A stretch of DNA of 64,000 nucleotides, taken from an uncultured Myxococcales bacterium. Lineage in GTDB: Bacteria > Myxococcota_A > Polyangia > Palsa-1104 > JAEUJZ01. How positions within the stretch are numbered: position 1 is the first letter of the stretch; every line of letters starts with the position of its first letter. The notes under the pieces are model-generated. The model had not been told where the DNA came from. It worked only from the letters and a program-made list of their open reading frames with translations, and did not search any database. Shown piece after piece: positions 2,985-54,870 of the stretch. Location of the stretch: the NCBI GenBank assembly GCA_964537055.1, contig CAZHYV010000004.1, forward strand, positions 112,661 to 176,660. Reading direction: 5' to 3'. The translations under genes were made by a program, and so were the position numbers.

Positions 2985-3058
2985 CGGGACCGACGGGACT
3001 CGAACCCGCAACTTCCGCCGTGACAGGGCGGCGCTCTAACCAATTGAACTACGGTCCC
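2985..3058 (-). tRNA. tRNA-Asp (anticodon GTC)
   Basis: The 74-nt sequence folds by hand into a cloverleaf with acceptor GGGACCG/CGGTCCC, anticodon stem CCGCC/GGCGG, loop CTGTCAC, T-loop TTCGAGT and discriminator G. CCA is not encoded. Confidence 0.85.
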
Positions 3059-3241
3059 AATTGAAGAGGGATACGATTAAGCCAAATTCTGAAGAATTAG
3101 TCAAATCGATTTTGTAAGTTTTCAGAGGAGAAACCAAAATTTTTGACTTTGGTCGACGATAAAAGAGGCAGAATTGTTTTGGAAGCGATATGCTTTCTTG
3201 ATTTACTTTAGATTGAGCCTCCTCCAGAAAAGACAGATTCT

Positions 3242-4531
3242 CTATCTGGCTTTGCTAGGTTCGATCACCTCTTTGCCGTGGAGATACGGCCTAAGCACCT
3301 TGGGAATTTGTACACTGCCATCAGGTTGCTGATAGGTTTCTAAAACGGCTATCACCGTCCGAGGAAGCGCTAAACCTGATCCATTGAGCGTATGCACAAA
3401 CCGAGGTTTTTCCCCAGGAGAACGATACTTAATCTGTGCCCGCCGCGCTTGGAAATCCCCGAAGTTGCTGCAAGAAGAGACCTCAAGCCACTCGTTTACC
3501 CCCGGAGAAAAGACCTCGAGATCATACTTTTCACAAGCTGCAAACGAGAGATCCGCCGTACACATCTGGATCACTCGATAGGGAAGCTCAAGGCGTTTTA
3601 AGATTTCCTCTGCGTTGCTGAGCAGTACCTTCAGCTCTCGCTTGCTCTCCTCGGGTTTTACAAATTTGACCATCTCTACCTTATCAAACTGATGACCCCG
3701 TTTGATCCCCCGGGTATCCTTACCTGCGGCCAATTTTTCTCTTCGGAAGCACGCTGTATAGGCGACATGGTTGATGGGTAATTCTTCTTCCTTGAGGATT
3801 TCGTCTCGGTATAAATTGGTGACCGGAACTTCCGCGGTAGGAATAAAATAAAAATCTTCCTCCGCATCTCGATAAAGGTTATCTCCAAACTTAGGGAGCT
3901 GCGCAGTCCCATACAGGCATAGCTGCCTTACCATATAAGGAGGCATGACCTCAGTATATCCCTGCTCGATATGTACATCGATCATCCACTGGATCAAGGC
4001 TCTCTGCAGGGCCGCCCCTGCCCCTTTAAGCACGTAAAAGCGCGAGCCTGAGATTTTCACACCTCGCTCAAAGTCTAAAATCCCTAAGGATTCTCCGAGC
4101 TCCCAGTGGGTTTTTGGCGAAAAAGAAAATGGTCTCTTTTTCCCCTCCTCTCGCACTACTTTATTTTCCGAATCACTATGACCCAGTGGAACTTCTTCAT
4201 CAGGCAGGTTGGGAAGTTGAAGAGACAACTTCTCCAGCTCTTCTTCAATTTGGCGAAGTTCTGCGTCCAGAAGCACCACTTGCCTTTTGACCGCATCCAT
4301 CTTTTCGATCAAAGCTTTTCGCTTTTCGGCGTCTTTTTCCTGAGCAATTACCTGCGAAGCCTGGTTCCGCTGCTGCTTAAGCTCTTCAGCAGCAAACAAA
4401 TTCTGCCGACGGCGTTCGTCAAGCACGATGACTTTTTGCATCGTCATATAGGCTTCTTGGTCAAACAGACGCTCTTGATAAATTTTTGCAACCTGGGCAG
4501 AGTGTTCTCGTAATAGTTTTGGATCAAGCAT
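3242..4531 (-). CDS. serS: seryl-tRNA synthetase
   Basis: 429 aa with an N-terminal coiled-coil arm and a class II aaRS core (RFYVLKGAGA, FRREKLAAGKDTRGIKRGHQF, SSCSNFGDFQARR). Confidence 0.9.
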   Translation of the reverse strand: MLDPKLLREHSAQVAKIYQERLFDQEAYMTMQKVIVLDERRRQNLFAAEELKQQRNQASQVIAQEKDAEKRKALIEKMDAVKRQVVLLDAELRQIEEELEKLSLQLPNLPDEEVPLGHSDSENKVVREEGKKRPFSFSPKTHWELGESLGILDFERGVKISGSRFYVLKGAGAALQRALIQWMIDVHIEQGYTEVMPPYMVRQLCLYGTAQLPKFGDNLYRDAEEDFYFIPTAEVPVTNLYRDEILKEEELPINHVAYTACFRREKLAAGKDTRGIKRGHQFDKVEMVKFVKPEESKRELKVLLSNAEEILKRLELPYRVIQMCTADLSFAACEKYDLEVFSPGVNEWLEVSSCSNFGDFQARRAQIKYRSPGEKPRFVHTLNGSGLALPRTVIAVLETYQQPDGSVQIPKVLRPYLHGKEVIEPSKAR

Positions 4532-4647
4532 ACTCGATAGATTGTGCCTGTGTGGACGGTGGTGTCAAGGATTCTTGAGCCCTTTATTTTAGGTTTTTGA
4601 AGAAGTTAACCGCAGAACTAAGGATGGTTTGAGATTAGGAAAAAGAA

Positions 4648-5151
4648 TTAACCAAAGACTTCTTTAAACGCAGGGAGCAGCTTTTGATAAAGTTCCCCAA
4701 GAGATTTCCCAATCACCTTCGTCTCAGCAACCACCGGCATAAAGTTTGTATCCCCATTCCACCGAGGAACTACGTGGAAATGGCAGTGGTCCGCAATTCC
4801 TGCCCCTGCGGCTTTACCGAGGTTCATACCCAGGTTCATGCCTTCAGGAAGGAGTTCTTGCTTGAGGATGGCAACGGTTTTTTGAAGGAGTTCACAAAGG
4901 GCTTGGTATTCTTCTTTCGGAAGCTCGCTAAGATCAGAGACGTGCCTTCTAGGAATCACCATAAGATGCCCTGCATTATAAGGATAAAGATTAAAAATAA
5001 CGAACGCTTTCTCTGAAGAGTAGAGAATAAAATGCTCCTTATAGGAAGCAGGACCTTTTTGAGGAAACTCACAAAAGATACACCCCTCGCTCTTTTTTTC
5101 ACCCTTGCGAATGTAGCTAGCCCGCCAGGGAGCCCAAAGATTCTCTATCAT
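4648..5151 (-). CDS. HIT-family nucleotide hydrolase/transferase
   Basis: Histidine-triad motif HCHFHVVPR together with a CIFCEF zinc-binding-like segment; 167 aa. Confidence 0.7.
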   Translation of the reverse strand: MIENLWAPWRASYIRKGEKKSEGCIFCEFPQKGPASYKEHFILYSSEKAFVIFNLYPYNAGHLMVIPRRHVSDLSELPKEEYQALCELLQKTVAILKQELLPEGMNLGMNLGKAAGAGIADHCHFHVVPRWNGDTNFMPVVAETKVIGKSLGELYQKLLPAFKEVFG

Positions 5152-5317
5152 TATTTTTCCTTATCATGATCCCTGCCAAAAAACCAGAAATCCCCTACAA
5201 AGAAAGATAAAGAAAAGAAATGAATCCTCGAGAAGAGTTCTTTAGGGAAGGATAGGAAAGACCGGTAAAAGGCTTTCGAAGATGAGAGAAGAAACAGATA
5301 GGAAGAAAGTAGAATTT

Positions 5318-7054
5318 TTACGTGTCAGAGTCTTCAGAAGAAGCTTTTTTCTTCTTGTTCTTCTGCTTTCCAAACACATCCGCCAAGGTGGCTCCGCCTG
5401 ATTCGTTGGCCTTGTATCCTTGCGCCATAGAAATCTCAGCACGCCTTTGGGCAGATCTCATCGAAAGACCAATCTTCCGCTCTTCGGGATCGACCAGAAC
5501 AACTTCGGCCTGAACCTCTTGGCCAGGCTTCAAAGCCGCTTTAGGGTCTCCGCCTTTGTCATCTACAATTTCAGAAATGTGAATGAGTCCTTCAATGCCC
5601 TGACCTAGTTCAACGAAAGCGCCAAAGTCTAGCATTTTTACTACTTTCGCGGTTACAATCTTGCCGACGGGCAGTTCGGCAGGGATATGCGCCCATGGAT
5701 CTTCGGCAAGCTGTTTGATGCCTAGCGAAATTTTTGGCTTATCTACTTCTCCCATATCGATCTGTAAGACAACAGCCTCGATCTCATCCCCTTTGTTATA
5801 CATTTCGGAAGGATTCTTAACCCTCTGGGTCCAGCTAAGATCAGACACATGGACCAGACCGTCAATCCCCTCTTCAATCTCAACAAACAAACCAAAGTCT
5901 GTCACATTGCGGATAGTTCCTTTGACTTTGGCGCCAATTGGGTACTTCTCTAATAAAGCTTCGTAGGGGTTTGGCTCAAGCTGTTTCATCCCTAGTGAGA
6001 TCCGGTTGTTTGCAGGATCTACTTCTAGCACAACTGCTTCCACCGTGTCGCCAATGGCCACCATCTTCGAAGGATGCTTAATTCTTCGCGTCCATGACAT
6101 TTCGCTGACGTGGATAAGACCCTCAATTCCTTCTTCAAGCTCAATGAAGGCGCCATAATCTTTGAGAGAGACAACCTTTCCACGAACCACAGTTCCAGGT
6201 TTATATCTCTCTGGCGCTGTTTTCCATGGATCTTCGGTAATTTGCTTCATCCCCAGGCTAACCCGCTCGGTGTCTGTATTAAACTTGAGCACCTTCACCC
6301 TGATATGATCTCCGACTCGAAATAGTTCGGATGGGTGGTTCACTCGACCCCAGCTCATATCGGTGATATGAAGCAATCCATCGATGCCTCCAAGATCAAT
6401 AAAAGCACCGTACTCTGTCAGATTCTTTACGATTCCTTCGACGATTTGGCCTTCCTGAAGTCTTTCAATGGTGTGTTCTTTCAGATGGGCACGTTCTTGC
6501 TCTAACAGAGCTCTTCGAGAAAGTACGATGTTGCCCCGCTTTTTGTTAAACTTAATTACTTTAAATTTGTAGGATTTACCAATGTATCCTTCGAGATTCC
6601 GCACAGGACGCAAGTCGACTTGGGAACCGGGCAGAAATGCCTTGACTCCTCCTCGAATCTGGACGGCAAGCCCGCCCTTCACTCGCTGGATCACAACACC
6701 TTCGATAAGTTCATCTTTCTCACAGGCAACCGCGATCTCATCCCATACCTTGAGGCGATCTGCCTCTTCTTTTGAGAGGACACAAAGACCGTTTTCATTC
6801 TCTCGGCTCTTTAAAACTACACCTACGGTATCACCCACATTTGCGGCAAGTTGACCGTCAGGGCCCATAAATTCAGCAATAGGAACCTGGCCTTCTGATT
6901 TATAACCGACATCGATGAGAACATGGTCTTTTGTGATCTGGACAATACGTCCTTGAATGACTTTGCCCTCGGCAACTTGTTCATTCTTTAGACTTTCTTC
7001 AAATAATGATGCGAAGGATTCTTCTTGGGAGGGGGACTGTTGGGACATGAACAT
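5318..7054 (-). CDS. rpsA: 30S ribosomal protein S1
   Basis: 578 aa with six tandem S1 RNA-binding repeats (recurring G..V.G.V..I...GAFV.L motifs). Confidence 0.9.
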   Translation of the reverse strand: MFMSQQSPSQEESFASLFEESLKNEQVAEGKVIQGRIVQITKDHVLIDVGYKSEGQVPIAEFMGPDGQLAANVGDTVGVVLKSRENENGLCVLSKEEADRLKVWDEIAVACEKDELIEGVVIQRVKGGLAVQIRGGVKAFLPGSQVDLRPVRNLEGYIGKSYKFKVIKFNKKRGNIVLSRRALLEQERAHLKEHTIERLQEGQIVEGIVKNLTEYGAFIDLGGIDGLLHITDMSWGRVNHPSELFRVGDHIRVKVLKFNTDTERVSLGMKQITEDPWKTAPERYKPGTVVRGKVVSLKDYGAFIELEEGIEGLIHVSEMSWTRRIKHPSKMVAIGDTVEAVVLEVDPANNRISLGMKQLEPNPYEALLEKYPIGAKVKGTIRNVTDFGLFVEIEEGIDGLVHVSDLSWTQRVKNPSEMYNKGDEIEAVVLQIDMGEVDKPKISLGIKQLAEDPWAHIPAELPVGKIVTAKVVKMLDFGAFVELGQGIEGLIHISEIVDDKGGDPKAALKPGQEVQAEVVLVDPEERKIGLSMRSAQRRAEISMAQGYKANESGGATLADVFGKQKNKKKKASSEDSDT

Positions 7055-7285
7055 GCGTTTTGTGGTTCTCTCTTTCTTCGGTAAGTGACCGAAACACCTG
7101 CGATCTAAAGGGCTGCATTCTGTATGATAAACACCAGAGATTTCAGAGAATTTGTGAATATGATGTAAAAACCAAGCTCGCAGCCCTGAAATCTTCCTAA
7201 GAATTTACCGCCTTTTAGGTTTCCGGGTCAAGAGAATTTCTATTCGTAAGCAAGGTCACTACCCACCGTTTTTAAGCAACCTCCC

Positions 7286-7957
7286 TCATGGAAAAGAGCG
7301 AAGTCGCTCTTTATAGATTCTTTCCATCTGATTTACTACCTGCTCCAACGTCAGATCACTTGTGTCGATCAAAACCGCATCTTCGGGCCGCTTGAGTGGT
7401 GCTACTGAACGTTCGGAATCCCTCCCATCACGTGTAGTTTGTTCTTGAAGAATCTGCGCTAACGTCATCTCCACCCCAGCACTTTTTATTTCCTCCAACC
7501 TCCTCTGGGCTCTTACTTCAGGACGGGCGGTTAAAAAAAACTTCAGAGGCGCATGAGGGAGAACCACAGTTCCCACGTCTCTGCCTTCCACTACACAAGA
7601 GCCTTTCCCAGCCAGGTCCCTTTGAATAGGCAAGAGTGCCTCTCGGACCGCAGCATACGGAGAAACTAACGAGGCTCCCTCAGAAATTTCAGGAGACCGG
7701 ATTTCCTGGGTCACTTCTTCAGTCCCTAGAAAGACACGGACGAACCCACGTTCGCGTTGAAAGCAGATCGGTAGATCTTTAGCTAACTCTTTTAGATGCA
7801 CCTCGTCGGTGTAGGAGACATTTTTCCTTTTTGCCAGGAGTGCAAGGCAACGATAGATCGCGCCCGTATCGAGCAGATAGAACCCCAACCTTTTTGCTAG
7901 CATTTTCGCAACCGTCGACTTCCCCGCCCCCGCAGGTCCATCAATGGTAATCATCAT
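7286..7957 (-). CDS. cmk: cytidylate kinase
   Basis: P-loop [16 protein letters not shown] and a CMP-binding region. The start is taken at the internal MMITIDG Met; the ORF track extends to 8044, so the start is uncertain. Confidence 0.85.
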
Positions 7958-8049
7958 ACGGTTCTCCAAATAGCTCATTTTTCTATCCATGCTCCAAAGA
8001 GAACCATACCTATTTTGCGTTCTTCCGAAAAGTAAGATATACAAGTTTT

Positions 8050-9366
8050 ATGTCTTTTTCTTCTCCAAATATGCCACAAACTTGGATCTGCGATCTACCC
8101 AAACACATTGGAGGTTTGGTCGAACTACGCGGCTGGCTTCACCAGCGTAGCTCGAAGGGAAAGTTACATTTTTTGAAAGTCCGAGATGGGTCAGGGTTCG
8201 TGCAAGCCGTGGTCTTTCAAGGAGATGTCTCTCAAGAGGTCTTTTATGAGGCAGACCATCTTCCTCAGGAGACCTCTATCATCATCCGGGGGATTGTCAA
8301 AGAGGACAAGCGCTCAGCGTCAGGCGTTGAATTGCAGGTACAAGACTTACAGGTGATTGCCAAACCCACCCTCGAATTTCCAATTAGTCCAAAGGAACAT
8401 GGTATTGCCTTCCTAATGGATCAGCGGCATCTATGGCTTCGTAGCAAGCGGCAAGTTGCCATTATGCGAATTCGTGCAGAGCTGGTCGCAGCCATCAGGC
8501 AGTACTTTGATGGGAAAGGATTTACCCTGGTGGATGCGCCGATCTTTACTCCTTCCGCGTGTGAGGGAACCACCAATTTATTCGAGGTGAAATATTTTGA
8601 TGAGAAAGCGTATCTTACGCAATCGGGACAGCTCTACATGGAAGCGGCTGCCATGGCGCTTGGGAGAGTTTACTGCTTTGGACCTACGTTTCGGGCGGAG
8701 AAGTCGAAGACTCGTAGACACTTAACCGAGTTTTGGATGGTCGAGCCTGAAGTCGCCTTCATGGATTTGGCGGGAGATATGGATTTAGCAGAGGATTTTC
8801 TGGTCGAAATTGTTGCCCGAGTTCTAAAAAACTGCCAGGCAGAACTTGAGGTCCTCGAACGGAATGTCTCTTCCTTAGAGCGAGTGAAAAAACCTTTTCC
8901 TCGCATTCGTTATGAAGAAGCCTTAGAGATTTTAGCAAAACACGGAAAGCATGTACCGTTCGGCGAGGATTTCGGCGGAGATGAAGAAACAGTGATTAGT
9001 GAGCAGTTTGATCGGCCTGTGATGATCCACAGGTACCCAAAACAGGTAAAAGCTTTCTATTTTAAACCGGACCCAGAGGATGAACGCTTGGCTCTTTGCG
9101 TGGACGTCATCGCCCCTGAAGGCGCAGGTGAAATCATTGGTGGGGGTCAGCGCGAGGATGACCTTGATAGGCTTCTATCCCAAATTGATTTACACAAGCT
9201 CCCTAAAGAAGCATTCGAGTGGTTTTTAGATTTACGTCGATATGGGTCAGTACCGCATGCAGGTTTTGGATTAGGTCTTGAGCGTACCGTCGGTTGGATT
9301 TGCGGCCTGCATCACGTTCGAGAAACCATCCCCTTCCCACGAATGCTCGAGCGTCTTAAGCCATAA
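8050..9366 (+). CDS. asnS: asparaginyl-tRNA synthetase (class IIb)
   Basis: 438 aa with an N-terminal OB fold. Class II motifs [21 protein letters not shown] and [10 protein letters not shown] are AsnRS-type, and [10 protein letters not shown] is motif 3. Confidence 0.8.
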
Positions 9367-9431
9367 ACTTACCCCGGAGACAACTGCTCTTTCTTATCGG
9401 AGAGCACCTTATAGCAAGGCATCTCTGCTCC

Positions 9432-11042
9432 CTACTCTAACTGTACCCATTGCTCGTAGTCTGGGTAAATTCGTGCCTGGGCTTTTATCGATTCGCACTC
9501 AACCCATACATCACCGGGAGGAAGGTTCTGAACGGAGAACTCACCTTTTTCGTCAGTGGTTACATGACCCACTACCTCTCCAGCCCCATTGCGAATGCTC
9601 ACCTTTTTTCCTGAGATTTCTTTTGATGTCCGCAATCTTCCTTTTAACCGACCTGCCTGGTCTAGCTCGATTCGTAAATCTCGATAAGAAATTTCTTGTT
9701 CGACCTTCATTTTCTTTTTCACCGGCACGTAGCCTTCTGCCTGTACAGAAAGATCAATGTCCCCTTTTGGGGCAGATAAAATTACAAAATGTCCGTTTCT
9801 ATCAGGGAAAACGGTGTGTTCGACATTCTGAAAACTCCAACGAACCTGCGCCTTGGTAGGAATTGCAAAACCACGATAGTTAGTCACAATACCCTCAATA
9901 CGCACCCCCTTATGCAAAGTAAGCGTAAGCATGGGAGCGTTTTTTAATTCCTCAGGAGAATAGGACTTTTCAAACGACCCTAGTAGATTATGGCTGATTT
10001 TTAAGGTGGCTGGTTGGAGAGAGACCTGGGGCAATATGCATTTCCCTACGCCATCGGTAAGACAGGAGGGAGAAAACCCACCCACTTCTTGGATCCGCAC
10101 CAAAGCGCCTGAGACCTTCCTCCCCTGTTCATCTAAGACTTCTATCTGCAAATCTTGCTTCTCTAACGAATTTTCTTCAGGCAAACCAAATGGATCACTC
10201 GATAGGGAGGGCATATCAGGCATCAAAACCAGAGCAACAAAAATTCCTTCGGATTGACATCTTTCTTCATCGGAGATTATGACTTTTTTAGTACCCAACC
10301 CTTGAGATTCCATAGAGTTTATCTCCTTGCTAAGATTTGCCTCTTGGGTTTGAGCAGATCGAGATGCCTCTACATCCCGTATCCTTACGATAGCTTTTGC
10401 ATTTCCATCTGTTGTTATCGCAGAAATTTGAACCAATTCATCAGGCAGCTCAGAAAAGGCAACCATTCCCTTGGCATTGGTTTTTTTTCGGGTTGCCTGG
10501 GCTGATTGTAGTTGAGGCTGAGCAGGAGATGTAAGATTTTGGGAAGAACTTTTCTCGCCATAAGGTTTCTTGACGATCACCTCTTCGGGATAGGGAAGAT
10601 TCCCATAAACGACCCCTAATTCCCCTTTTGATTCAAATCGGTAAGGCCCGTAATGATACATCTCTGACGAAAAAGGCTCTGCTACAACTTCTACCTGAGA
10701 AACAGGCTTTTGTGCCTGAGAAAGAACTTCCACACAGAGTAGTTTCTTTTGCTTCAAACGTTCTTTGGAATCATCTTTAGGAAGTTCGCCTATAGAGGGA
10801 TTGTCTGGGTTTGCTATTGTTTTTATCACCATGGTTTGAGAAATCGTTGTCTGAGAAATTTGAGAAGTGGAAGAAGTAACTTGATTTTTCAATGGGTTAT
10901 TTCCTACCGTGGGTGGGTTCGTAAACGAAATCCCTTTTCCAATCATCCATCCTACAAGGATTCCTACCGTGGCTAGACCCAGCTTTTGAGCCCAATCCAT
11001 CTTTGCTTGCCATTTTTTTCTTGGAGGCATCTTTTCATTCAT
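9432..11042 (-). CDS. hypothetical membrane-anchored protein with a C-terminal carboxypeptidase-regulatory-like (Cna B-type) beta-sandwich domain
   Basis: An N-terminal TM segment (LATVGILVGWMIG) is followed by a Ser/Thr/Gln-rich linker. The C-terminus (GEVVGHVTTDEKGEFSVQNLPPGDVWV) resembles a CarboxypepD_reg fold. The start is taken at the internal MNEKMPP Met, since the ORF track start at 11177 would overlap rpmB. Confidence 0.5.
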   Translation of the reverse strand: MNEKMPPRKKWQAKMDWAQKLGLATVGILVGWMIGKGISFTNPPTVGNNPLKNQVTSSTSQISQTTISQTMVIKTIANPDNPSIGELPKDDSKERLKQKKLLCVEVLSQAQKPVSQVEVVAEPFSSEMYHYGPYRFESKGELGVVYGNLPYPEEVIVKKPYGEKSSSQNLTSPAQPQLQSAQATRKKTNAKGMVAFSELPDELVQISAITTDGNAKAIVRIRDVEASRSAQTQEANLSKEINSMESQGLGTKKVIISDEERCQSEGIFVALVLMPDMPSLSSDPFGLPEENSLEKQDLQIEVLDEQGRKVSGALVRIQEVGGFSPSCLTDGVGKCILPQVSLQPATLKISHNLLGSFEKSYSPEELKNAPMLTLTLHKGVRIEGIVTNYRGFAIPTKAQVRWSFQNVEHTVFPDRNGHFVILSAPKGDIDLSVQAEGYVPVKKKMKVEQEISYRDLRIELDQAGRLKGRLRTSKEISGKKVSIRNGAGEVVGHVTTDEKGEFSVQNLPPGDVWVECESIKAQARIYPDYEQWVQLE

Positions 11043-11164
11043 GATATAAGCTTTCTTTTTAAAACCACCGTGGTCAATATAGCCGATCGAGTTTACCATC
11101 GGTAAAAATATTAGCTTGTTTGAACCACCTAACAACCTGTGAATTTGTATTGTAAGAGAAAACC

Positions 11165-11377
11165 ATGGCAAATACATGTGATTTTTGTGATAAAGGCCGG
11201 CTGGTCGGTAACAAAATCAGCCACTCCAACATCAAAACCAAAATGGCTCAACGGCCTAACCTTCAACGGGTACGCGTAACGATCGGCAAGGTGGCAGAAC
11301 GTGTACGAATTTGTACACGTTGTCTCCGTAGTGGAGCTGTTGTGAAACGCAGCCGTTCTTTCTCTGCAACTGCGTAG
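11165..11377 (+). CDS. rpmB: 50S ribosomal protein L28
   Basis: 70 aa, MANTCDFCDKGRLVGNKISHSNIKTK, which is the canonical L28 N-terminus. Confidence 0.85.
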   Translation: MANTCDFCDKGRLVGNKISHSNIKTKMAQRPNLQRVRVTIGKVAERVRICTRCLRSGAVVKRSRSFSATA

Positions 11378-11501
11378 CTAAATGTTGTCGGTTCATTTAC
11401 CAACTCATGAATACTTTAGACTGCGCGGATTCAATTTTTACAAATATTGCTTCCTCGTGAAAAATTAGACCCTCACGAGTGCAGTTTATCAAAGGCAGCC
11501 G

Positions 11502-11951
11502 TCACTCTGCAAGTAGGCGTACAAGCGCCGCACCGTAGATTACTGTATAAGCCATCCATATAAGCGTCGCACCCACGCGGAGCCAAAGTGCGCCTGTCCA
11601 ACCTTGACGCATCAGGCGGTCAAAGATTAGAGGCTGCATAGCAAGTCGTAACATCCAGAACAAAACAACGAAGCTGAGTAGAAATCGTGCAAGCTCACTC
11701 GGTGCAAGCAGAAGTCCTGGTCTTAGCATTGAGAGTAGCCCGAGCCCTAGCAAGACAAATGCGAGAAAAAAAGTGTGCACCGCAAAGACACGAGCATTAA
11801 GCGGCGACAGTCTCGTCACTTCTTCATTCCAACCTAGGATGCGCCATAGCACAGCGTGAAATGCTGAGAGAATGATGAGCGATGCACCTGTGATGCGCAA
11901 AACCCACTCTAGCATCATGCCCTCCGCTCCAACACCAAAACGATGACCCAC
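11502..11951 (-). CDS. hypothetical integral membrane protein (four predicted TM helices) within the high-GC islet
   Basis: 149 aa and hydrophobic; codon usage and GC (about 57%) differ from the surrounding genes. Confidence 0.5.
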   Translation of the reverse strand: MGHRFGVGAEGMMLEWVLRITGASLIILSAFHAVLWRILGWNEEVTRLSPLNARVFAVHTFFLAFVLLGLGLLSMLRPGLLLAPSELARFLLSFVVLFWMLRLAMQPLIFDRLMRQGWTGALWLRVGATLIWMAYTVIYGAALVRLLAE

Positions 11952-12688
11952 GGTGTCACCCGCATCTCACATGCTACCACAAAATGTGCCTGCGCAGCGA
12001 GGCGTAGCCACTCGTGACGCGCTACAAAGTGTAAAAAACCTGGGCCAAACGCAACAAAGTTCATCGCATCACGTAAATGTTCTACTAGTACCATGCGCCC
12101 GCCAGGACGCAGGGCGCGGTATATCTCCTTGAAAAAGCGCTCGCGGGCCTGTGTGATGCGAATCTCATGGGCAGTAAAAGCCACAAGGACGGCATCGCAG
12201 CTCGCCTCCGCAAGCGTCAGTGCCGTAGGTGAACATCTCGTTGAAACTTGATTTGGTGGCGTCACCGCCCGTGCCCGGCCGATGGATGGCGATTTCATGA
12301 CCCGCGCATCGAAGATGTCCAGACGCGCGATACAGCGACCCGGCATGACCTTATCTAGGATGATCTCGCTATCAAGGCCTGCGTGAATCGTCGCCCACGT
12401 TTGTACCGGCGTCGCCAGCAGTGCTGGTAGCCACGCGCCGCTGACCAAAGGTGATCGATCGTAAATATAATGTGAAACGACAAGAGAAACAGCTGACCAA
12501 AAAAGCGGCACGGCACATGCTGCAAGGATCCAGACCACTGCGAATGCAGGCTTTTTCACAAGCATGAAAAGCAGCGCTGCCGAAGCAAACCCCCAGGTAC
12601 CTGCATAGATCGGCCAGTTATAAAGAAAAATACGTAGACTGCCGCTTTGTCGATTCATTCCAGCGACTCCAGGGTGCCCGGCTTCCAT
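11915..12688 (-). CDS. membrane-anchored SAM-dependent methyltransferase-like protein with degenerate motif I
   Basis: Two N-terminal TM helices, then a region with post-I and motif III-like segments (DAVLVAFTAHEI, LRPGGRMVLVEH). Motif I lacks its glycines, so the assignment is tentative. Confidence 0.35.
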   Translation of the reverse strand: MEAGHPGVAGMNRQSGSLRIFLYNWPIYAGTWGFASAALLFMLVKKPAFAVVWILAACAVPLFWSAVSLVVSHYIYDRSPLVSGAWLPALLATPVQTWATIHAGLDSEIILDKVMPGRCIARLDIFDARVMKSPSIGRARAVTPPNQVSTRCSPTALTLAEASCDAVLVAFTAHEIRITQARERFFKEIYRALRPGGRMVLVEHLRDAMNFVAFGPGFLHFVARHEWLRLAAQAHFVVACEMRVTPWVIVLVLERRA

Positions 12689-13428
12689 AGGTAGGGAACG
12701 TTTTCTAGATAGAACGCGTTTGCCAGGCGTGCATCCTTAAACCGTGGTGCCAGAAGGTAGCTTGCCTCGTGCACTGTCACGCGAACAGGCTCTGGCGTCC
12801 ATACCTTGCGGATACCTTTGATTATCACCATCTTCTTCGCATGTTTGTTGTACGAGAATGTAAATGGCAGCGGACCAGCAAAGTTGCGCGAGTCCTGCAA
12901 CGAGCGAAAGGGGCTAGTCTCGGGCAGCGCCGCTGGGCGAGCCGAGAGATCCGCTGTCACTCGTAGATCTGCTTCACGACCGGGTGTACGAATCGTCACA
13001 TCAAGCTGCGATGCCGTCGCACTCATCGACACATCAGCTCGGTGGTAGTTATAATGTGTAAACACATTTCCAAGGACTGACATCATGCGGCGATCAGTAT
13101 CGCTGCGAAGAATGCGCAGACCGCGCAGCGTCGGCTTTCCTGGACGTACAAAGCGGGTGAAGATGCGGTATCCACTCAAAAAGAAGTTACGCCCAAGCAG
13201 AGAAGGAAATCCCTGTGGTCGTAATCTTTCTGTTTGTACGAGTGCAATCGCTAGGAACCCATAATCATCGTACGTATCAAGCTCCAATCCAGGGTCTAAA
13301 AGATCGGTAAGCGCCGATGCTGGCACTGCGTACGCCAGCACGAGCGAGCGTCGGAAGAATGCTTCGACGGCGAAGGGATGCCGCTTTAGAATTTCGACTC
13401 TCTTTTCCAGAAACGCTTTTATACCCAT
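12655..13428 (-). CDS. DUF2071-family (YqjF-like) protein
   Basis: 257 aa. The N-terminal pattern LELDTYDDYGFLAIALVQTERLRPQGFP matches the DUF2071 signature as recalled from memory; high GC. Confidence 0.5.
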   Translation of the reverse strand: MGIKAFLEKRVEILKRHPFAVEAFFRRSLVLAYAVPASALTDLLDPGLELDTYDDYGFLAIALVQTERLRPQGFPSLLGRNFFLSGYRIFTRFVRPGKPTLRGLRILRSDTDRRMMSVLGNVFTHYNYHRADVSMSATASQLDVTIRTPGREADLRVTADLSARPAALPETSPFRSLQDSRNFAGPLPFTFSYNKHAKKMVIIKGIRKVWTPEPVRVTVHEASYLLAPRFKDARLANAFYLENVPYLWKPGTLESLE

Positions 13429-13499
13429 AGTTATTCTCTTTTACACCATGCTAACAAGACTTTGTCTTGCCATTTAAGAAAACAAGAGAAACCGTCCCC

Positions 13500-15716
13500 C
13501 TAAGTAACACGGATGGGAAGAATGACTACGTTGAGGCTCTTCCACTGAAGTCGTCTTTGAAGAGAATACACCATCTGGTGGTGAAGCAACCGTTCCCAAA
13601 AATGCTCGTTTTGGAAAACCAATTTTCCTGCAAAGACAGTCATATTTGGGTATTGATCGGCGGCCTGCATACAAAGCTGCTCTGCCTCTTCAATAACATC
13701 CGTACCCACAGCAATCATACTATCAGCAGGCACCCCAATCCTACGGGCGAGCGATACGTACTTATCCAGATCTGCCTGTGTCTTCTCTTTGAGAGCGTGA
13801 ACTTCTTTTGCCCCTTTGAAGCTACCCGAATCTACGACAGCCACTGAAACAAAGACAAACTGTTTATAAAGCCCGGGGAACTGTCTTAGTACAGACAAAA
13901 GTGTATGGACCCCTAAGCCTGAGTAAGAAGAGACAAGCAGGACGGCCGTTCTCGCCTCTCGCTCTAACGGCGCATTCATGCCAGGACGATTCTCTGAAGG
14001 GAGGACGGTTAAAAGTTCATCAAGTGATCGTACTCTTTCATAGACTCGACGGTAATGACGCCGGATTCCGTAGCAGATTAGGACGAGAATGCCTGTAACA
14101 ACCAGGGTCAGCCAAGCACCGTGACGAAATTTTTCCATGATGGTTACAATAAGTACAGTGACACACAAAAGTGTCCCTATCACATGGATAGGGAGATGTC
14201 GTTTCCACCCGGGTTTGTGGTACCGATTCTTAATCCAGAATTTACACATCCCCAATTGAGAAAGAGTGAAGGTGACAAACACATTGATCGAATACATCGT
14301 AAGTAGTGATTCGGTGGACCCCTTGGTATAAAAAAGCACTGCAAGCGCTGCCCCGCCCATCAGCAAAATTCCATTGGTCATCGTGAGCTGTTCGGAGAGT
14401 GCCGCAAATCGATGTGGCAGCCAAGAATCAACTGCCATATTGGACATGACTCGAGGACCGTCTAAGAATCCAGCCTGCGCCGCTACTGTCAAAAGTGCTG
14501 CCTCTGCAAGGAGAGTGATGACGGCAAGGATCTTCCCAAGAGGCACCCCTCCTGCTTGAAATTTTCCATAAAGGCTTTCTACCAAAATTCCGTTGAAGGT
14601 TTTCCCCTGCATTTCAGGAAGTTTCGACAGGTGATACACGTCCGAAAGCAGGTAGCAAATCAGGATCCCGCCCGCCGTGACCGCAAGAGATACCGCCATA
14701 TAAACCATGGTCTTACGTCCCGTGGCGGCACGGGGTTCACGCATAATCATGAGCCCGTTCGAGACGGCTTCGATTCCGGTGTAGCTACTACCACCAAGTG
14801 CGTAAGCTCGCAAAAAGAGCATAATCATTCCCCCATAGCCAAGAACACCTAGGCCTTGGTGAAAGTCCTGCTTCACATTTTGAGCAACCTGAGGAATTTG
14901 GTACGTGTGAGAGAAGATTCCGTAAAGAAGTAAAAAGGCATGGGTGACTAAGAAAACAATAAAAATAGGAACTAAAATACGGACGGACTCTTTTACCCCT
15001 CGGATGTTTAAAAGCATGAGGACAATGATAACGACTGCTGAGAGTGGCAGTTTATACTGTGCCCATTGCGGGGGAAGAAAATTAAAGATAGAATTGACCC
15101 CTTCTACGACGGAGACGGTGATCGTCAGCACATAATCAATAATTAAAGCCGAGCCAGAAATGACCCCAGCCTTTTCACCAATCAGCGAAGTTGCGACGAC
15201 ATAACCACCCCCTCCCGAAGGGAAGTGCTCAATGATCCGGCTATAAGCATAAGAAATAATAAAAACCGTCATGGCCACTGCGACCGCTAGTGCAATTGCC
15301 AAATACGAATGGTGTTCTGTTGAAGCACATATCCCTTTTAGGGCATTCACCGCAGCTTCAGGAGTTCTTGTAGAATGGCATAACGCCTTAAATGCAGCTT
15401 CAGGACCATAAGCAGATGAGGACAAACCGTCGGCCCCAAGACCCACCCATGCCAAAAAGGCAACCAGGGACATCTTGTGAAAGACATGCGGATCCTCTAC
15501 ATTGCGGCCTTTCCCAAAAATAAGCCTCCACACACGAGCAAGGCCCGTCACAGGGGGTTCTTCAGCGATAGGACCAGTGGAGGCTTCTTTGGGGACAGGA
15601 TCTGAGGCTTCTTTTTCTGAGTTTTCTTCCGAAGGAGCAACGTCAGAAGCGGGTTGTTGGTGTGTAGAGTCCATGGTGGAAGAAAGATCTATACTAGAGT
15701 TATCAGGGAGAAGCAA
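13500..15716 (-). CDS. APC-superfamily amino-acid permease fused to a C-terminal universal-stress-protein (UspA)-like domain
   Basis: 738 aa with about 12 TM helices (GIEAVSNG and similar motifs) after a hydrophilic N-terminus. The C-terminal roughly 150 aa has an alpha/beta Usp-like pattern (VLLVSSYSG...VVDSGSF...AVGTDVIEE). Confidence 0.65.
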   Translation of the reverse strand: MLLPDNSSIDLSSTMDSTHQQPASDVAPSEENSEKEASDPVPKEASTGPIAEEPPVTGLARVWRLIFGKGRNVEDPHVFHKMSLVAFLAWVGLGADGLSSSAYGPEAAFKALCHSTRTPEAAVNALKGICASTEHHSYLAIALAVAVAMTVFIISYAYSRIIEHFPSGGGGYVVATSLIGEKAGVISGSALIIDYVLTITVSVVEGVNSIFNFLPPQWAQYKLPLSAVVIIVLMLLNIRGVKESVRILVPIFIVFLVTHAFLLLYGIFSHTYQIPQVAQNVKQDFHQGLGVLGYGGMIMLFLRAYALGGSSYTGIEAVSNGLMIMREPRAATGRKTMVYMAVSLAVTAGGILICYLLSDVYHLSKLPEMQGKTFNGILVESLYGKFQAGGVPLGKILAVITLLAEAALLTVAAQAGFLDGPRVMSNMAVDSWLPHRFAALSEQLTMTNGILLMGGAALAVLFYTKGSTESLLTMYSINVFVTFTLSQLGMCKFWIKNRYHKPGWKRHLPIHVIGTLLCVTVLIVTIMEKFRHGAWLTLVVTGILVLICYGIRRHYRRVYERVRSLDELLTVLPSENRPGMNAPLEREARTAVLLVSSYSGLGVHTLLSVLRQFPGLYKQFVFVSVAVVDSGSFKGAKEVHALKEKTQADLDKYVSLARRIGVPADSMIAVGTDVIEEAEQLCMQAADQYPNMTVFAGKLVFQNEHFWERLLHHQMVYSLQRRLQWKSLNVVILPIRVT

Positions 15717-15843
15717 GTGGGATATTGTTCGAGGGTGTGAGTCTTAGAAAGACCTATGTACACACGTTCAGATATTCTACTTTGATCTTCTTCGTTAGTT
15801 CATTCTTGACTTCTTTCCGGCTGGTTGCTAGGTAGCAAAACCT

Positions 15844-17220
15844 ATGGTAGAGTCCAAGACGCCATCTCCCAGCTTCTTTTCAAATATGAATCTAGTATCC
15901 GGCTCTTCGCGCGAATCAGGCTCTTCTTTGCGTGTAGAGTTTGTCGCGGGCATGACTACATTTTTTACAATTGCCTATGTACTCATTGTCCATCCAAAAA
16001 TCCTGGCAACCCCAGAAACGGGGATGCCCTTTTCTGGGGTACTGACCGCAACCGTGCTTTTGTGCTTCTTTCTTACGTTGCTGATGGGACTTTACGCAAA
16101 GCTTCCTTTTGCGGTTGCCCCTGGAATGGGAGTGAACGCCTTCTTCGCAGCCACTTTGATTGTGCAAGAAAAAATCCCATGGCCCACCGCTTTAGGCATG
16201 GTGTTTTGGTCGGGCGTCTTGTTTGTGCTTATCTCCGTAACCCCTTTACGAACCCTGCTTGCCCGTGCGATCCCTCAACATTTACGGATGGCGATCGCCG
16301 CTGGCATGGGTTTGTTTTTGGCTTTTTTGGGATTCCAGCAGGCTGGGTTTTTGGCGGCGAACCCAGATACCCTCCTTACCTGGCAACCCATGGGTTTAAA
16401 ATCCGTTCTCTCTCTTTTTGGGCTTGTGATGGCTGTTCTGCTGTTGCGAAGAAAGCATCCCCTGGCACTTCTGTTTGGCATACTTGGGGCTACCTTCTTA
16501 TCCTGGTGCTTCCAGCTTACAAAAATTCCCCACTCTTTTCTAAGCTGGCCCGATTTTCGTAGTGTCCTTTTTAAGTTAGATCTATGGGGTGCGCTAAAAT
16601 GGTCTTTGGTTCCTTCAATTGTTTCGCTATTCTTTACGGATTTTTTCGATTCATTATCAACGTTTGTCGGAGTCGCTGAAGCTTCTGGCCTAAAAGAACC
16701 TGATGGCAAGCCGCTTCGGTTAAAACAGGGACTGATTGTGGATGCGTTTGCAACCCTGTTTGCAGGACTTTTAGGAACCTCTTCGGGGACAGCTTATCTG
16801 GAAAGTATGGCTGGGATTGAAGTCGGCGGAAAGACAGGCCGCACAGCCATGGTGGCAGCGTTCTGTTTCCTTCCTTGCTTATTTTTTGCACCTCTGTTTG
16901 AAATGGTTCCTGAATACTGTACCGCCCCGGTCTTGATCTTGGTGGGGATCATGATGTTCCGCTCAGTATTTCAATGTCCTTTGGCACATTGGGAAGATAT
17001 CCTGCCTATGGGTTTAGTTATCTTTTTGATGCCCTTTACCTTCTCCATCACGCAAGGAATCTTATGGGGATTTAGCGCGCATGTGCTTCTCTATCTTCTT
17101 GTTGGTAGAAGGAAAGAACTGTCTTGGGCGATGATTTCGATGGGCACCCTCTCCATTTTCCTTCTTTTGTACCAACATCACGTTCTTTCAATCCTAAGAG
17201 CCTATTTCTTTCGTGTTTGA
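15844..17220 (+). CDS. AzgA-family (NCS2) purine (guanine/hypoxanthine-type) permease
   Basis: N-terminus LRVEFVAGMTTFFTIAYVLIVHPKIL plus multiple TM helices; 458 aa. An alternative start at 15886 is possible. Confidence 0.7.
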   Translation: MVESKTPSPSFFSNMNLVSGSSRESGSSLRVEFVAGMTTFFTIAYVLIVHPKILATPETGMPFSGVLTATVLLCFFLTLLMGLYAKLPFAVAPGMGVNAFFAATLIVQEKIPWPTALGMVFWSGVLFVLISVTPLRTLLARAIPQHLRMAIAAGMGLFLAFLGFQQAGFLAANPDTLLTWQPMGLKSVLSLFGLVMAVLLLRRKHPLALLFGILGATFLSWCFQLTKIPHSFLSWPDFRSVLFKLDLWGALKWSLVPSIVSLFFTDFFDSLSTFVGVAEASGLKEPDGKPLRLKQGLIVDAFATLFAGLLGTSSGTAYLESMAGIEVGGKTGRTAMVAAFCFLPCLFFAPLFEMVPEYCTAPVLILVGIMMFRSVFQCPLAHWEDILPMGLVIFLMPFTFSITQGILWGFSAHVLLYLLVGRRKELSWAMISMGTLSIFLLLYQHHVLSILRAYFFRV

Positions 17221-17278
17221 GAGTTCGCTTTGGAACGATATTTGCTGAATCAAATCACTTCCTGGTAGACTCCTTCTT

Positions 17279-19453
17279 ATGTTTAACAACCCATCCGACT
17301 CTTCCTTGCTAGAAACGTATTTTCGTACGCAGGGCTATCTGCTAGGAAGACCTGTAAATCCCTTGTTTCACCCCAGCGGCAAACAAATATTTTTCCTGCG
17401 CGCAGAAGCTCCAGATTTTCATCTTCACCTCTATGAATATGAGATTAAGACCCAGACAGCTCGTCATTACTTATCACCTCATGAACTTTTGCAGGGTGAA
17501 GCAACACTTTCTAAAGAAGAACAGTCTCATCGAGAGCGGGTGCGTTTGGTGGCCAAAGGATTTACGACGTTTTCTTTCTCCCACGATGGTACTTTGCTAT
17601 TGATTCCCTACTCCGGGCGTATTTTTTTAATCGAAACGGCAACAAAAAAAGTTGTCGAGGCCAAAATTCAAGGTTTTGCAAACGACGTCCGCTTTTCTCC
17701 CGACGATCGGTACCTTGCCTATGTGCAAGAGAGAAATCTTTTTGTTTTTGACCGTGACCGGGGATGTTCTGTACAGCTTACCCAGAGTTCCCACCCTAAA
17801 ATAAGTTATGGGCTTGCCGAATTTGTTGCCCAGGAAGAAATGGATCGGTTTTCAGGGTATTTTTGGTCTCCGGACAGCTCTCAAATTGCCGTATGCGAAG
17901 TGGATGAGCAGGGGATGGAAGAATTTTATATTGCGGATCCAGGTCACCCCGAGAAAGAACCGCAACGATTTTCTTACCCTCGTCCCGGTGGAATCAATGC
18001 CAAAGTTCGTCTGGGAATCATTCCTCCTTTGGGAGGACCCTTCGCTTGGATTGCGTGGGATCGGGAAAGATTTCCCTACCTTGCGAAGGTGCTTTGGCAA
18101 AAACAAAGCCCACTCACCCTTGTTGTCCAAAGCCGAGATCAAAAAGAAATTCAGATTCTTGTTGCTGATCCAAATACTGGGGCAACCACTTGTTTACTGA
18201 GGGAATCTGATGCAGCTTGGTTCAATCTCGACCAAACGGTTCCACGGTGGATTTCTAAAGGAGCGGCATTTTTGTGGAGCACGGAAAGAAATGGACTTTA
18301 CGAACTTGAGCTTCGATCCAAGGACGGGACTTTGATAAAAACAGTCGTTCCAAAGGAGGTTGGCTATCGAGGACTCCTTTCAGTAGATGCTCAAAGCAAA
18401 TCTTTGTATGTACTTGGGGGACAAGAGCCTAGCGAGCGGCACATCTATCAAATTCTTTTAGATAGCGGACAGATAAAACCCCTCACCCAAACGTCAGGTT
18501 GGCACAGTGGTTCTTTTAGCGAAGATGGGAAGTTATGGGTCCATACCGAAGTAACTCTTCAATCGATGCCTAAAAGCTATGTGCGAAGCGTAGACTGCGA
18601 ACTAAATGGGGCCGATAAGCAAACTTGCGGAGTGGGCAGCCAACGATATGCAGAACTTCCTAGCATTGCCGAGGAACCCTCTCAGTTTGCCAATGTTGAA
18701 TTTGCCGTTTTGGGAAAGCGAGAGATACGAACGGCGATTGTACGTCCACGTGGTTTTGAGGTAGGGATGAAGTATCCGGTTATTGTGGATGTGTACGGAG
18801 GTCCTCATCGCACAGATGTAGTAACCCATCCCCGAAGGTTTCTTCTTAATCAGTGGCTGGCAGACCAAGGATTTGTCGTGGTAACCATGGATGGACGAGG
18901 CACACCTTTTCGAGGGAGAGCATGGGAGCGGTCCATTCTGGGAAGCTTCGGTGTTATTCCCCTAGAGGATCAGGTGGACACGCTCGAGGAGCTATGCAGG
19001 AGACACCCTGAGCTTGATAAGACGAGGGTGGGGATTCATGGTTGGTCCTTCGGAGGTTATCTGTCCGCCCTGGCTTTGCTAAAATGCCCCGATGTATTTC
19101 ATGCGGCAGTCTCAGGAGCTCCTGTCGTTGATTGGCGAGACTACGACACCCACTACACCGAGCGATATTTAGGGATGCCATTGGAGAATACTTCTGGTTA
19201 CCGAGAAAGCTCTCTCCTCACCTATGCGAAAAATCTCAGACGACCCCTTCTTTTGATGCATGGTACGGCAGATGACAATGTTTATTTTTTTCACTCGCTC
19301 AAATTGAGCCAAGCCCTGCTCAATGCCGGAAAACCTCACGACTTTTTACCACTCGTTGGAACAACCCACATGATTGCAGAGCCTTTACAAAATCAGAGAC
19401 GGTGGGAGACAATTGCTGACTTTTTTAGGAAGCACCTGGGTTTTCCTTTGTAA
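17279..19453 (+). CDS. S9-family serine peptidase (dipeptidyl peptidase IV-like)
   Basis: 724 aa with an N-terminal beta-propeller region and a C-terminal alpha/beta hydrolase carrying GWSFGGY (GxSxG), a catalytic Asp (LMHGTADDNV) and His (GTTHMI). Confidence 0.8.
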   Translation: MFNNPSDSSLLETYFRTQGYLLGRPVNPLFHPSGKQIFFLRAEAPDFHLHLYEYEIKTQTARHYLSPHELLQGEATLSKEEQSHRERVRLVAKGFTTFSFSHDGTLLLIPYSGRIFLIETATKKVVEAKIQGFANDVRFSPDDRYLAYVQERNLFVFDRDRGCSVQLTQSSHPKISYGLAEFVAQEEMDRFSGYFWSPDSSQIAVCEVDEQGMEEFYIADPGHPEKEPQRFSYPRPGGINAKVRLGIIPPLGGPFAWIAWDRERFPYLAKVLWQKQSPLTLVVQSRDQKEIQILVADPNTGATTCLLRESDAAWFNLDQTVPRWISKGAAFLWSTERNGLYELELRSKDGTLIKTVVPKEVGYRGLLSVDAQSKSLYVLGGQEPSERHIYQILLDSGQIKPLTQTSGWHSGSFSEDGKLWVHTEVTLQSMPKSYVRSVDCELNGADKQTCGVGSQRYAELPSIAEEPSQFANVEFAVLGKREIRTAIVRPRGFEVGMKYPVIVDVYGGPHRTDVVTHPRRFLLNQWLADQGFVVVTMDGRGTPFRGRAWERSILGSFGVIPLEDQVDTLEELCRRHPELDKTRVGIHGWSFGGYLSALALLKCPDVFHAAVSGAPVVDWRDYDTHYTERYLGMPLENTSGYRESSLLTYAKNLRRPLLLMHGTADDNVYFFHSLKLSQALLNAGKPHDFLPLVGTTHMIAEPLQNQRRWETIADFFRKHLGFPL

Positions 19454-40814: not shown

Positions 40815-40831
40815 TGGTCTCTCTAAAATTT

Positions 40832-40904
<73 letters not shown>

Positions 40905-40926
40905 TAGAAGATGTGGGAAATCAATG

Positions 40927-43386: not shown

Positions 43387-43555
43387 GAGGAAAGTGCCGA
43401 GACAAGAATTTATTCAAACAAATGTAGGAGAATGCCAAACCTTACTGCTCCATTTTAACATCAAAGGAGCCAAAAATAGTTTCTTTATTCACGTAAGTAG
43501 TTAAAAGTGCAGAACTTTGTGGAACTGGACAACGATACCATAAAGCTTCTCATCA

Positions 43556-54860: not shown

Positions 54861-54870
54861 TAAATAAAGT

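Follow-up and report, generated by a model that had tools for sequence, protein, structure and literature searches.

Three minus-strand genes at positions 11502-13428 of a 64-kb stretch of contig CAZHYV010000004.1 (the window, meaning the whole stretch of DNA analysed) encode a DUF2071 protein, a methyltransferase-like (MT-like) protein, and a small membrane protein with four predicted membrane helices (4TM). Judged by gene order and homology, this triad is a shortened copy of a Myxococcota cassette with the order DUF2071, MT-like, 4TM, DoxX_3. The overall explanation that we somewhat favour is a partly ameliorated acquisition, within the phylum, of a membrane-bound module that would act on a lipid or a quinone; acquisition of the cassette by a low-GC host from a GC-rich, probably Myxococcota, lineage is in itself likely. 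The value of the locus lies less in the islet than in the module, a widespread and unstudied combination of a DUF2071 protein with a membrane-anchored methyltransferase fold that carries an H-A-G-x-D motif.

Codon and dinucleotide usage of the islet

Sliding-window analysis bears out the high-GC islet that the first-pass annotation had described within a backbone of about 46% GC. The window averages 46.3% GC and the region 11502-13428 reaches 53.3%, the most GC-rich 1.9-kb stretch in 64 kb (second among 1,242 sliding windows of 1,927 bp, behind an overlapping window that starts at 11451). The range of 52-67% GC given in that annotation holds for single 60-nt lines only, and at gene scale becomes 51-55%. 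In 400-bp windows GC is 0.51-0.57 within the region, 0.385-0.485 to its left, where a carboxypeptidase-regulatory-domain gene and the rpmB side form the low-GC flank, and 0.45-0.48 to its right in a permease gene. The abrupt change that had been noted on the rpmB and permease sides is found at about 11.0-11.5 kb and 13.4-13.5 kb, in the dinucleotide signature as well as in GC.

Pooled over the triad, GC at the first, second, and third codon positions (GC1/GC2/GC3) is 0.615/0.458/0.525, compared with 0.556/0.400/0.448 in 52 host genes. After correction for amino-acid content, synonymous GC3 is 0.524 in the DUF2071 gene (z 3.27, the top of the window) and 0.513 in the MT-like gene (z 2.57, high), where the gene-to-gene standard deviation (SD) of these z values across the window is 1.58; in the 4TM gene it is ordinary. 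GC by itself is a weak argument, since Ala, Arg, Leu, and Trp abound in the triad proteins and Lys, Asn, and Glu are scarce. The GC-normalised dinucleotide signature is far more telling: the distance between region and window is 0.187, against a mean of 0.057 (SD 0.026) for windows of the same size (rank 2 of 311; about 5 SD), with CpG at 1.17 vs 0.82, GpC at 1.36 vs 1.04, and CC/GG at 0.73 vs 1.11. Codon usage in the triad prefers NCG and NCA, avoids NCC and NCT (GCC 0.08, TCC 0.03, TCT 0.06), and favours CGC and GGT. A description of this usage as the midpoint of host and GC-rich Myxococcota usage is weakly true at best (shift correlation 0.47).

The part of the anomaly that the proteins themselves demand was separated by a codon-resampling control, in which the three triad proteins were held fixed and each codon was redrawn from host codon usage in 1000 runs. 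Resampled GC is 0.497±0.006 against an observed 0.533 (z 5.5), and the resampled signature distance is 0.085±0.014 (maximum 0.128) against an observed 0.190 (z 7.3); 19 host genes treated identically give z values of -3.1 to +2.6. About 45% of the GC excess is therefore due to amino-acid composition and about 55% to foreign codon choice. Raw GC had overstated the anomaly and had missed the strongest evidence for it, and recoding separated protein-driven GC from foreign codon choice; such a control can reveal transfer even where marks of mobility are lacking and the recipient is a low-GC branch of a GC-rich phylum.

Comparison with other hosts leads to the same result, and the proposed foreignness of the triad stands beyond what its proteins require. 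Cassette GC tracks flank GC with a slope of 1.09 (r 0.90) and a mean difference of -0.4 points over 33 loci with flanks of 53-69% GC, which rules out, for hosts in that range, the proposition that the cassette is always GC-richer than its host. Over 51 loci in other hosts the signature distance between cassette and flanks averages 0.064, with a maximum of 0.129, and the cassette is indistinguishable from its flanks. In a host of 47% GC (L066) the cassette shares the low CpG and GpC of that host, so the triad proteins do not impose the signature. On two short low-GC contigs the cassette lies 1.6 and 8 points above its flanks. The window copy is an exception among cassette loci in its compositional mismatch with the host.

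Origin and borders of the islet

Foreign composition implies a history for this segment different from that of its neighbours, and GC-rich relatives imply a GC-rich source: the nearest cassette homologues all lie in DNA of 58-72% GC, and the nearest single proteins, 67-71% identical, are encoded on contigs of 67-71% GC. The triad GC3 of about 0.52, compared with 0.6-0.9 in these relatives, implies long residence. The cassette has a patchy distribution, with some copies on plasmids. It would have been acquired after the composition of the host itself had dropped, and the copy would since have lost most, not all, of the synonymous-site and dinucleotide character of its donor; DoxX_3 would either never have been transferred or have been deleted beside rpmB.

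The ParE-type topoisomerase subunit encoded in the window is 58-65% identical to proteins of Myxococcales, Polyangia, Myxococcaceae, and Myxococcus, encoded in DNA of 60-68% GC; the two named matches come from metagenome-assembled genomes (MAGs) other than those of the cassette loci. The housekeeping genes of the window have no homologue in the fetched flanks of the cassette loci. Since the host ParE is nearest to Myxococcales and Polyangia, and the cassette is typical of the same phylum, the transfer would be at most intra-phylum.

Several observations weigh against transfer. The affinity of ParE, a single marker, makes the host itself look like a divergent, unusually low-GC member or neighbour of Myxococcota. 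The window cassette has 52-64% concatenated identity to the Myxococcota copies, equal to the range among those copies, and forms its own deep branch beside a Polyangia-type group; this equidistant position shows no nesting within a donor clade and fits vertical descent too. Among 5.8 billion proteins searched there is none closer than the best matches of 67-71% identity, so no donor can be named. No tRNA, integrase, insertion sequence (IS) element, or direct repeat was found at the islet borders. The 4TM gene is at background level in synonymous GC3 (0.427, z -0.13), and the codon preference of the triad fits neither the host nor the GC-rich Myxococcota orthologues.

On these grounds, vertical inheritance, with GC and signature shaped by constraints on the proteins or by local codon selection, has to be weighed as a rival to transfer. 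It accounts for the phylum-typical cassette in a host with Myxococcales- or Polyangia-like ParE, the deep and equidistant branch, the unmarked borders, the host-like GC3 of the 4TM gene, and the 45% of the GC excess that is amino-acid composition; the low-GC contig L075, in which the cassette is likewise about 8 points above its short flanks, also speaks for it. We consider it unlikely, since the observed 53.3% GC and 0.190 distance lie outside all 1000 host-codon simulations (49.7%, 0.085), no host gene among those resampled behaves like the triad, and the cassette blends into its flanks in the 51 other hosts, low-GC L066 included. An artefact of assembly or binning, in which a GC-rich fragment of another organism was joined into a low-GC contig, is very improbable: the window is a metagenome-assembled contig and the islet borders do fall on intergenic spacers, but window positions 3002-19122, with both junctions, recur without a difference in a 16,121-bp Logan contig (SRR11567520), the permease/DUF2071 junction, present in an independent run assembly (L002), is matched identically by a second-run contig (SRR11567529), and the GC3 of the triad genes (0.43-0.52) is far below that of the GC-rich relatives, as fits long residence in a low-GC genome.

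The preferred reading, acquisition from a GC-rich lineage, thus retains part of what the first-pass annotation had claimed. The high-GC donor is in keeping with the composition of the nearest homologues; the donor is not of an alien phylum and cannot be named. An acquired islet is in keeping with the foreign codon and dinucleotide usage, and not with the borders or with that part of the GC excess which the proteins explain. The islet resembles transferred genomic islets in that its deviation in GC, GC3, codon, and dinucleotide usage is abrupt at gene borders and in the patchy, partly plasmid-borne occurrence of its genes; it differs from them in its unmarked borders and in having a likely donor within the phylum of the host. 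A tRNA-Ala islet at 40.8-43.6 kb of the window is of the classical type and contrasts with it.

The DUF2071 gene is the first of the cassette (12655-13428, minus strand, 257 aa), followed by the MT-like gene (11915-12658, minus strand, 247 aa, start MNRQSG) and the 4TM gene (11502-11915, minus strand, 137 aa). The gene starts at 13428, 12658, and 11915 were set by the genes called on an identical public contig and by the N-termini of homologues. The DUF2071 and MT-like genes overlap by 4 nt (ATGA) and the MT-like and 4TM genes by 1 nt (TGATG); the longer overlaps of 34-37 nt first reported are an artefact of taking the longest open reading frames (ORFs). The overlaps indicate translational coupling, and the three genes form one translationally coupled operon, as had been suggested.

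On the right, a 71-nt spacer (13429-13499, minus strand) separates the stop codon of an APC-type permease gene (13500-15674) from the DUF2071 start and forms the compositional boundary; within it lie a small hairpin (CAAGAC-AAA-GTCTTG) and, ahead of the ATG, an AG-rich stretch. On the left, a 124-nt spacer (11378-11501) between the cassette end and the convergent rpmB gene (11165-11377) forms the other boundary. Promoter scans of the locus gave nothing above chance, no convincing terminator was found after the cassette, and searches for flanking direct or inverted repeats around the islet gave short, chance-level matches only. The permease is compositionally host-like (resampling z -3.1); it belongs to the APC family (AA_permease_2) and has a C-terminal extension of about 190 aa and, over residues 455-630, weak similarity to Kup potassium transporters. 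In 600-bp windows the stretch 11001-11600, which comprises rpmB and its flanks, already has a signature distance of 0.15-0.21 and CpG of about 1.0-1.2, and the GC3 of rpmB is host-like; in so short a stretch this signal may be ribosomal-gene codon bias, noise, or an islet border to the left of 11502.

Cassette architecture and protein folds

A scan of one genome per species gave 14 cassette loci. All lie in Myxococcota MAGs of 58-72% GC, and their gene order is identical. Because the scan relied on strict peptide patterns from close homologues, the count of 14 is a lower bound, and the confinement to a single phylum is in part a product of the search design. In all 14 loci the 4TM gene lies directly downstream of the MT-like gene (tblastn), and in all 14 a DoxX_3 gene (PF13781) is the fourth gene, usually with 4-nt overlaps; DoxX_3 is likewise the fourth gene in L018, L020, and L022, and in L014 DoxX_3 is cut off after 29-31 residues. 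The contig of the nearest MT-like homologue (67% identity) also runs on into a fourth gene. The triad, which the first-pass annotation had proposed checking as a conserved neighbourhood, is conserved in order but is only the core of the cassette found in its closest relatives.

The window copy has the DUF2071, MT-like, and 4TM genes in this order with overlapping stop and start codons, and no DoxX_3 after the 4TM gene. All family-invariant residues are kept in its three proteins. The 64-kb window contains no tblastn match to DoxX_3 at E≤1 and the left spacer 11378-11501 no remnant of it (hmmsearch --max, three frames, scores below 0); no sign of a decayed copy was found in either search. That the 4TM protein is itself a paralogue of DoxX_3 is ruled out (hhalign probability 0.7%). 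In L015 (CAVZJB010000012.1, 6861-7688) the 4TM protein and DoxX_3 form a single 275-aa ORF, a natural fusion that supports a predicted physical interaction of the two.

The MT-like family is large, with 964 clusters (50% identity) at E≤1e-3 and 376 at E≤1e-30. Its gene neighbourhood was followed in 80 diverse metagenome loci (L035-L114, 40-60% identity). DUF2071 lies directly upstream of the MT-like gene in 53 of the 54 loci with enough upstream DNA. Downstream, a 4TM gene is found in 33/66 loci and a canonical Methyltransf_11/25 gene in 17/66, never alongside 4TM; this exclusivity suggests alternative versions of one pathway. A neighbouring methyltransferase is similar to fatty-acid and phthiotriol O-methyltransferases. 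Only 5 of 28 loci have DoxX_3 after the 4TM gene; it lies upstream in about 10 loci, in most of which a 310-aa protein with an N-terminus of the DUF3419 (BtaA) family is encoded between DoxX_3 and DUF2071, sometimes together with a TetR regulator. Altogether a BtaA-like (DUF3419) gene neighbours the cassette in 11 loci, and MarR, TetR, and ArsR regulators and a YceI gene adjoin it in other taxa. Streptomyces linear plasmids carry the arrangements ArsR-DUF2071-MT-like-4TM and DoxX-BtaA-like-DUF2071-MT-like-4TM.

Fusions join DoxX_3, DUF2071, and MT-like (P0418), DUF2071 and MT-like (P0444), and a DCC1-like thiol-disulfide oxidoreductase and MT-like (P0459). Given this adjacency and these fusions, the parts of the cassette very probably work together physically. 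By its gene neighbourhood, the DUF2071/MT-like pair is obligate and is the invariant core of a variable membrane cassette. A role in anti-phage defence was ruled out; PADLOC gave only a generic 26.5-bit match to a methylase domain.

The DUF2071 protein matches PF09844 over residues 26-223 (46.2 bits against a cut-off of 27, E 5.6e-12) and has neither a signal peptide nor a transmembrane (TM) segment; its homologues are 61-71% identical to it. Searches of PDB sequences with the protein and with its profile gave nothing useful. An AlphaFold2 model (predicted local distance difference test, pLDDT, 93.0) superposes on members of the acetoacetate decarboxylase (ADC)-like superfamily, which includes ADC, MppR, the aldolase-dehydratase Sbi_00515, and Swit_4259. 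The top PDB matches in Foldseek are MppR (4jm3), Swit_4259 (5upb), and ADC (3bgt/3c8w), with E of 3e-10 to 4e-8, and the top 20 are all ADC-like (E≤4e-8, TM-score 0.56-0.62, identity 9-14%). The model thus assigns the protein an ADC-like beta-cone fold.

The characterised members of this superfamily all use a Schiff-base lysine (K115 of ADC), which the cassette proteins lack. An alignment of 69 cassette-type DUF2071 proteins has no conserved Lys column, and so the DUF2071 protein cannot use the Schiff-base mechanism of the superfamily. The residues that are invariant in this alignment are R70, R88, R102, R108, S109, D110, N121, T124, Y126, Y128, D154, R207, W210, Y246, and W248; seven arginines are conserved, as are a number of Asp, Tyr, Thr, and Asn positions. 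A survey from 2015 likewise describes PF09844 as a family without the Schiff-base lysine, and Pfam places DUF2071 in the ADC-like clan (PMC4520260). That paper, a de-DUFing study, was all that a literature search returned, in agreement with the earlier statement that DUF2071 has no established function.

The MT-like protein matches Methyltransf_11 over residues 138-200, in its C-terminal half only (35.5 bits against a cut-off of 21.2). In its AlphaFold2 model (pLDDT 94.3) a compact Rossmann-type domain comes after three helices (6-13, 15-35, and 41-68), and the second and third of these match the two N-terminal TM helices that had been noted. Foldseek matches are class I methyltransferases (E about 6e-9 to 1e-7, with more than 1,100 PDB chains at E≤1e-3); the best identity among them, 22-24%, is to a phosphatidylethanolamine (PE) N-methyltransferase with bound lipid (8ys9). 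As modelled, the protein is a class I methyltransferase fold (Rossmann-like, seven-strand) on an N-terminal helical hairpin. Polar and aromatic positions in the hairpin region are near-invariant (N14, S58, S62, Y66, D67, and W76), and the conservation of its polar residues suggests that the hairpin is more than an anchor.

In place of DxGxGxG, motif I of the MT-like protein reads T-I-H92-A-G94-L-D96-S-E98. The first-pass annotation had the motif I glycines lost; the motif is indeed degenerate, and one glycine (G94) is kept. Across 143 representatives of the family clusters at 50% identity the motif is [IVL]-H-A-G-[LF]-D-x-[STE], with H in 120/143, G94 in 143/143, and D96 in 135/143. D114 at the end of beta-2 is kept in 138 of the 143. 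Other near-invariant residues are H164-E165-x-R167, R172, E178, R181, E193-H194-x-R196-D197, N200, G205-P-G207, H210-F211, and W217. Pfam, PDB, and hhalign alignments all begin past motif I. The hhalign alignment to a canonical methyltransferase starts at beta-2, places D114 opposite the acidic residue that binds ribose, and covers motifs II and III (ARLDIFD with GIDMTD, and LRPGGRMVLVE with LKPGGQFVV).

The 4TM protein has no relative in Pfam, NCBIfam, or the PDB, including a PDB search with its profile. Among 47 homologues H20 in helix 1, H47 in helix 2, W29, G59, R90, Q94, and D99 are near-invariant; H20 and H47, together with R90, Q94, and D99, are possible candidate ligands of haem or a metal. 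No curated NCBIfam model names any of the three triad proteins. A literature search yielded no publication about the cassette, DoxX_3, or the function of DUF2071. The folds are already known; apparently no description exists of the DUF2071/MT-like pairing, the H-A-G-x-D motif, or the 4TM family.

Candidate chemistries and other features of the window

The DUF2071/MT-like pair would plausibly assemble on the cytoplasmic side of the membrane as a complex that acts on a membrane-embedded small molecule, either a lipid head group or a prenylquinone-like compound. Placement on that side is suggested by the lack of a signal peptide on both soluble domains and from the cytoplasmic location of S-adenosylmethionine (SAM). 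The MT-fold subunit may bind the adenosine and ribose of SAM through D114 and motifs II and III, with the methionine part held differently by the H-A-G-L-D loop, a tentative proposal from residue conservation. A His/Glu/Asp/Arg pocket beside this loop could hold a metal, and the arginine-rich, lysine-less ADC-fold partner would bind or process an anionic group of the same substrate or cofactor.

By analogy to RquA, it is also conceivable, at similarly modest likelihood, that the MT-like protein uses SAM for chemistry beyond or besides methyl transfer. The adenosine contacts are kept, the loop is acidic and poor in glycine, and many loci add a canonical methyltransferase, which makes non-methyl SAM chemistry possible. 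RquA is a membrane-bound methyltransferase fold that keeps the ribose-binding Asp (D118), has disrupted motifs, and transfers, in a Mn2+-dependent reaction, the amino group of SAM to ubiquinone (PMC9814641). Its D118 corresponds to D114 of the MT-like protein, which it also resembles in its class I fold and membrane association. It differs in being monotopic and in working alone, whereas the MT-like protein has a two-helix hairpin and an obligate DUF2071 partner. The RquA model NF038261 matches residues 138-206 at 22.4 bits against a cut-off of 175, and the MT-like protein is not a member of that family.

Some points also tell against a module that acts on a lipid or a quinone. Every match to a quinone, lipid, or arsenic methyltransferase is weak and confined to the generic C-terminal half. 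That the conserved His, Glu, Asp, and Arg residues (H164-E165-x-R167, E193-H194-x-R196-D197, N200, H210-F211) cluster in a pocket is deduced from their location after beta-4 and beta-5. No literature on the biochemistry of the triad families was found. Lipid head groups and prenylquinones or other redox-active aromatics are weakly, and comparably, indicated as substrates.

The first alternative, which we regard as possible and still improbable, is that the MT-like protein is an ordinary SAM methyltransferase, of the PmtA/BtaB or fatty-acid O-methyltransferase type, that acts on a membrane lipid, with DUF2071 and 4TM as accessory proteins. The class I fold, the retention of D114 with motifs II and III, the structural match to the PE N-methyltransferase 8ys9, and profile matches that include phosphoethanolamine and PE N-methyltransferases all point this way. 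So does the BtaA-like neighbour in the 11 loci and on a Streptomyces plasmid; BtaA and BtaB make the betaine lipid DGTS (diacylglyceryltrimethylhomoserine). PmtA (8ys9) and BtaA/BtaB share the fold with the MT-like protein, and they act on a membrane lipid. However, PmtA and BtaB have a canonical GxGxG and lack both a TM hairpin and an ADC-fold partner, whereas motif I of the MT-like protein keeps one of three glycines and has D96 at the position of the second in nearly all representatives. A separate canonical methyltransferase directly after the MT-like gene, as in the 17/66 loci, would be redundant if the MT-like protein itself methylated; the MT-like protein reaches no curated lipid-methyltransferase model, that of PmtA included; and neither the window cassette nor its Myxococcota counterparts include a BtaA-like gene.

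More doubtful is a membrane module for quinone/thiol redox chemistry or electrophile detoxification, in which the MT-like protein modifies a (prenyl)quinone and DoxX_3 with 4TM is the redox partner. The DoxX family is linked to quinone and thiol redox through Acidianus DoxDA, Bacillus subtilis MhqP/CatD, and the Mycobacterium tuberculosis DoxX-SodA-SseA complex, and DoxX_3 is both the fourth gene of the closest cassettes and part of the P0418 fusion. The DCC1-like thiol-disulfide oxidoreductase fusion, the MarR, TetR, ArsR, and YceI neighbours in other taxa, and the near-invariant histidines in helices 1 and 2 of 4TM, which could ligate haem or a metal, are in line with such a role. The best NCBIfam matches of the MT-like protein, all weak, are quinone methyltransferases (MpqE, RquA, and UbiE/MenG). 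These matches are generic and far under their cut-offs, as for RquA above and for the UbiE/MenG models TIGR01934 and PRK00216 (15.6-19.3 bits against 158-378). DoxX_3 is missing from the window, whose 4TM protein is not a DoxX relative, and from most other loci after 4TM, and no redox cofactor motif has been demonstrated.

About equally doubtful is the proposal that DUF2071 and MT-like form a new two-subunit, membrane-bound SAM enzyme, whose methyltransferase fold would have given up the glycine loop and acquired a His/Glu/Asp pocket. Its reaction on a membrane lipid or prenylquinone would be a non-methyl one, as with RquA or BtaA (an amino, aminocarboxypropyl, or decarboxylative transfer), with the lysine-less ADC-fold subunit completing the active site and the bis-histidine 4TM protein, with or without DoxX_3, as a membrane or redox partner. 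If this were true, the module would represent a lipid- or quinone-tailoring pathway that is widespread in soil bacteria and has so far gone unrecognised, with at least 376 clusters at 50% identity. The module is a candidate for non-canonical SAM chemistry at the membrane, and its fusions and neighbours (DoxX_3, DCC1-like, BtaA-like, the second methyltransferase, and MarR/TetR/ArsR) provide hypotheses for DUF2071.

Elsewhere in the window, the tRNA-Ala islet mentioned above spans 40831-43602. The tRNA-Ala(GGC) gene is at 40831-40905, and about 55 nt of its 3' part are repeated near-exactly at 43548-43602. Between the two copies lie three minus-strand genes of GC 0.37-0.43, which encode a weakly SIR2-like protein, a protein without assignment, and a YhcG/DUF1016 PDDEXK nuclease, and a Fic/DOC gene is found just past the islet (43722-44339). 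No integrase was seen, and the islet looks like a small defence-type insertion. An ORF of 191 aa at 47150-47725 has no Pfam match and is a compositional outlier with a GC3 of 0.31 (z -4.2). At 54000-58200, a block of about 4 kb has a GC of 38-41% and includes genes for a DUF6968 protein and a DUF676-like putative esterase.

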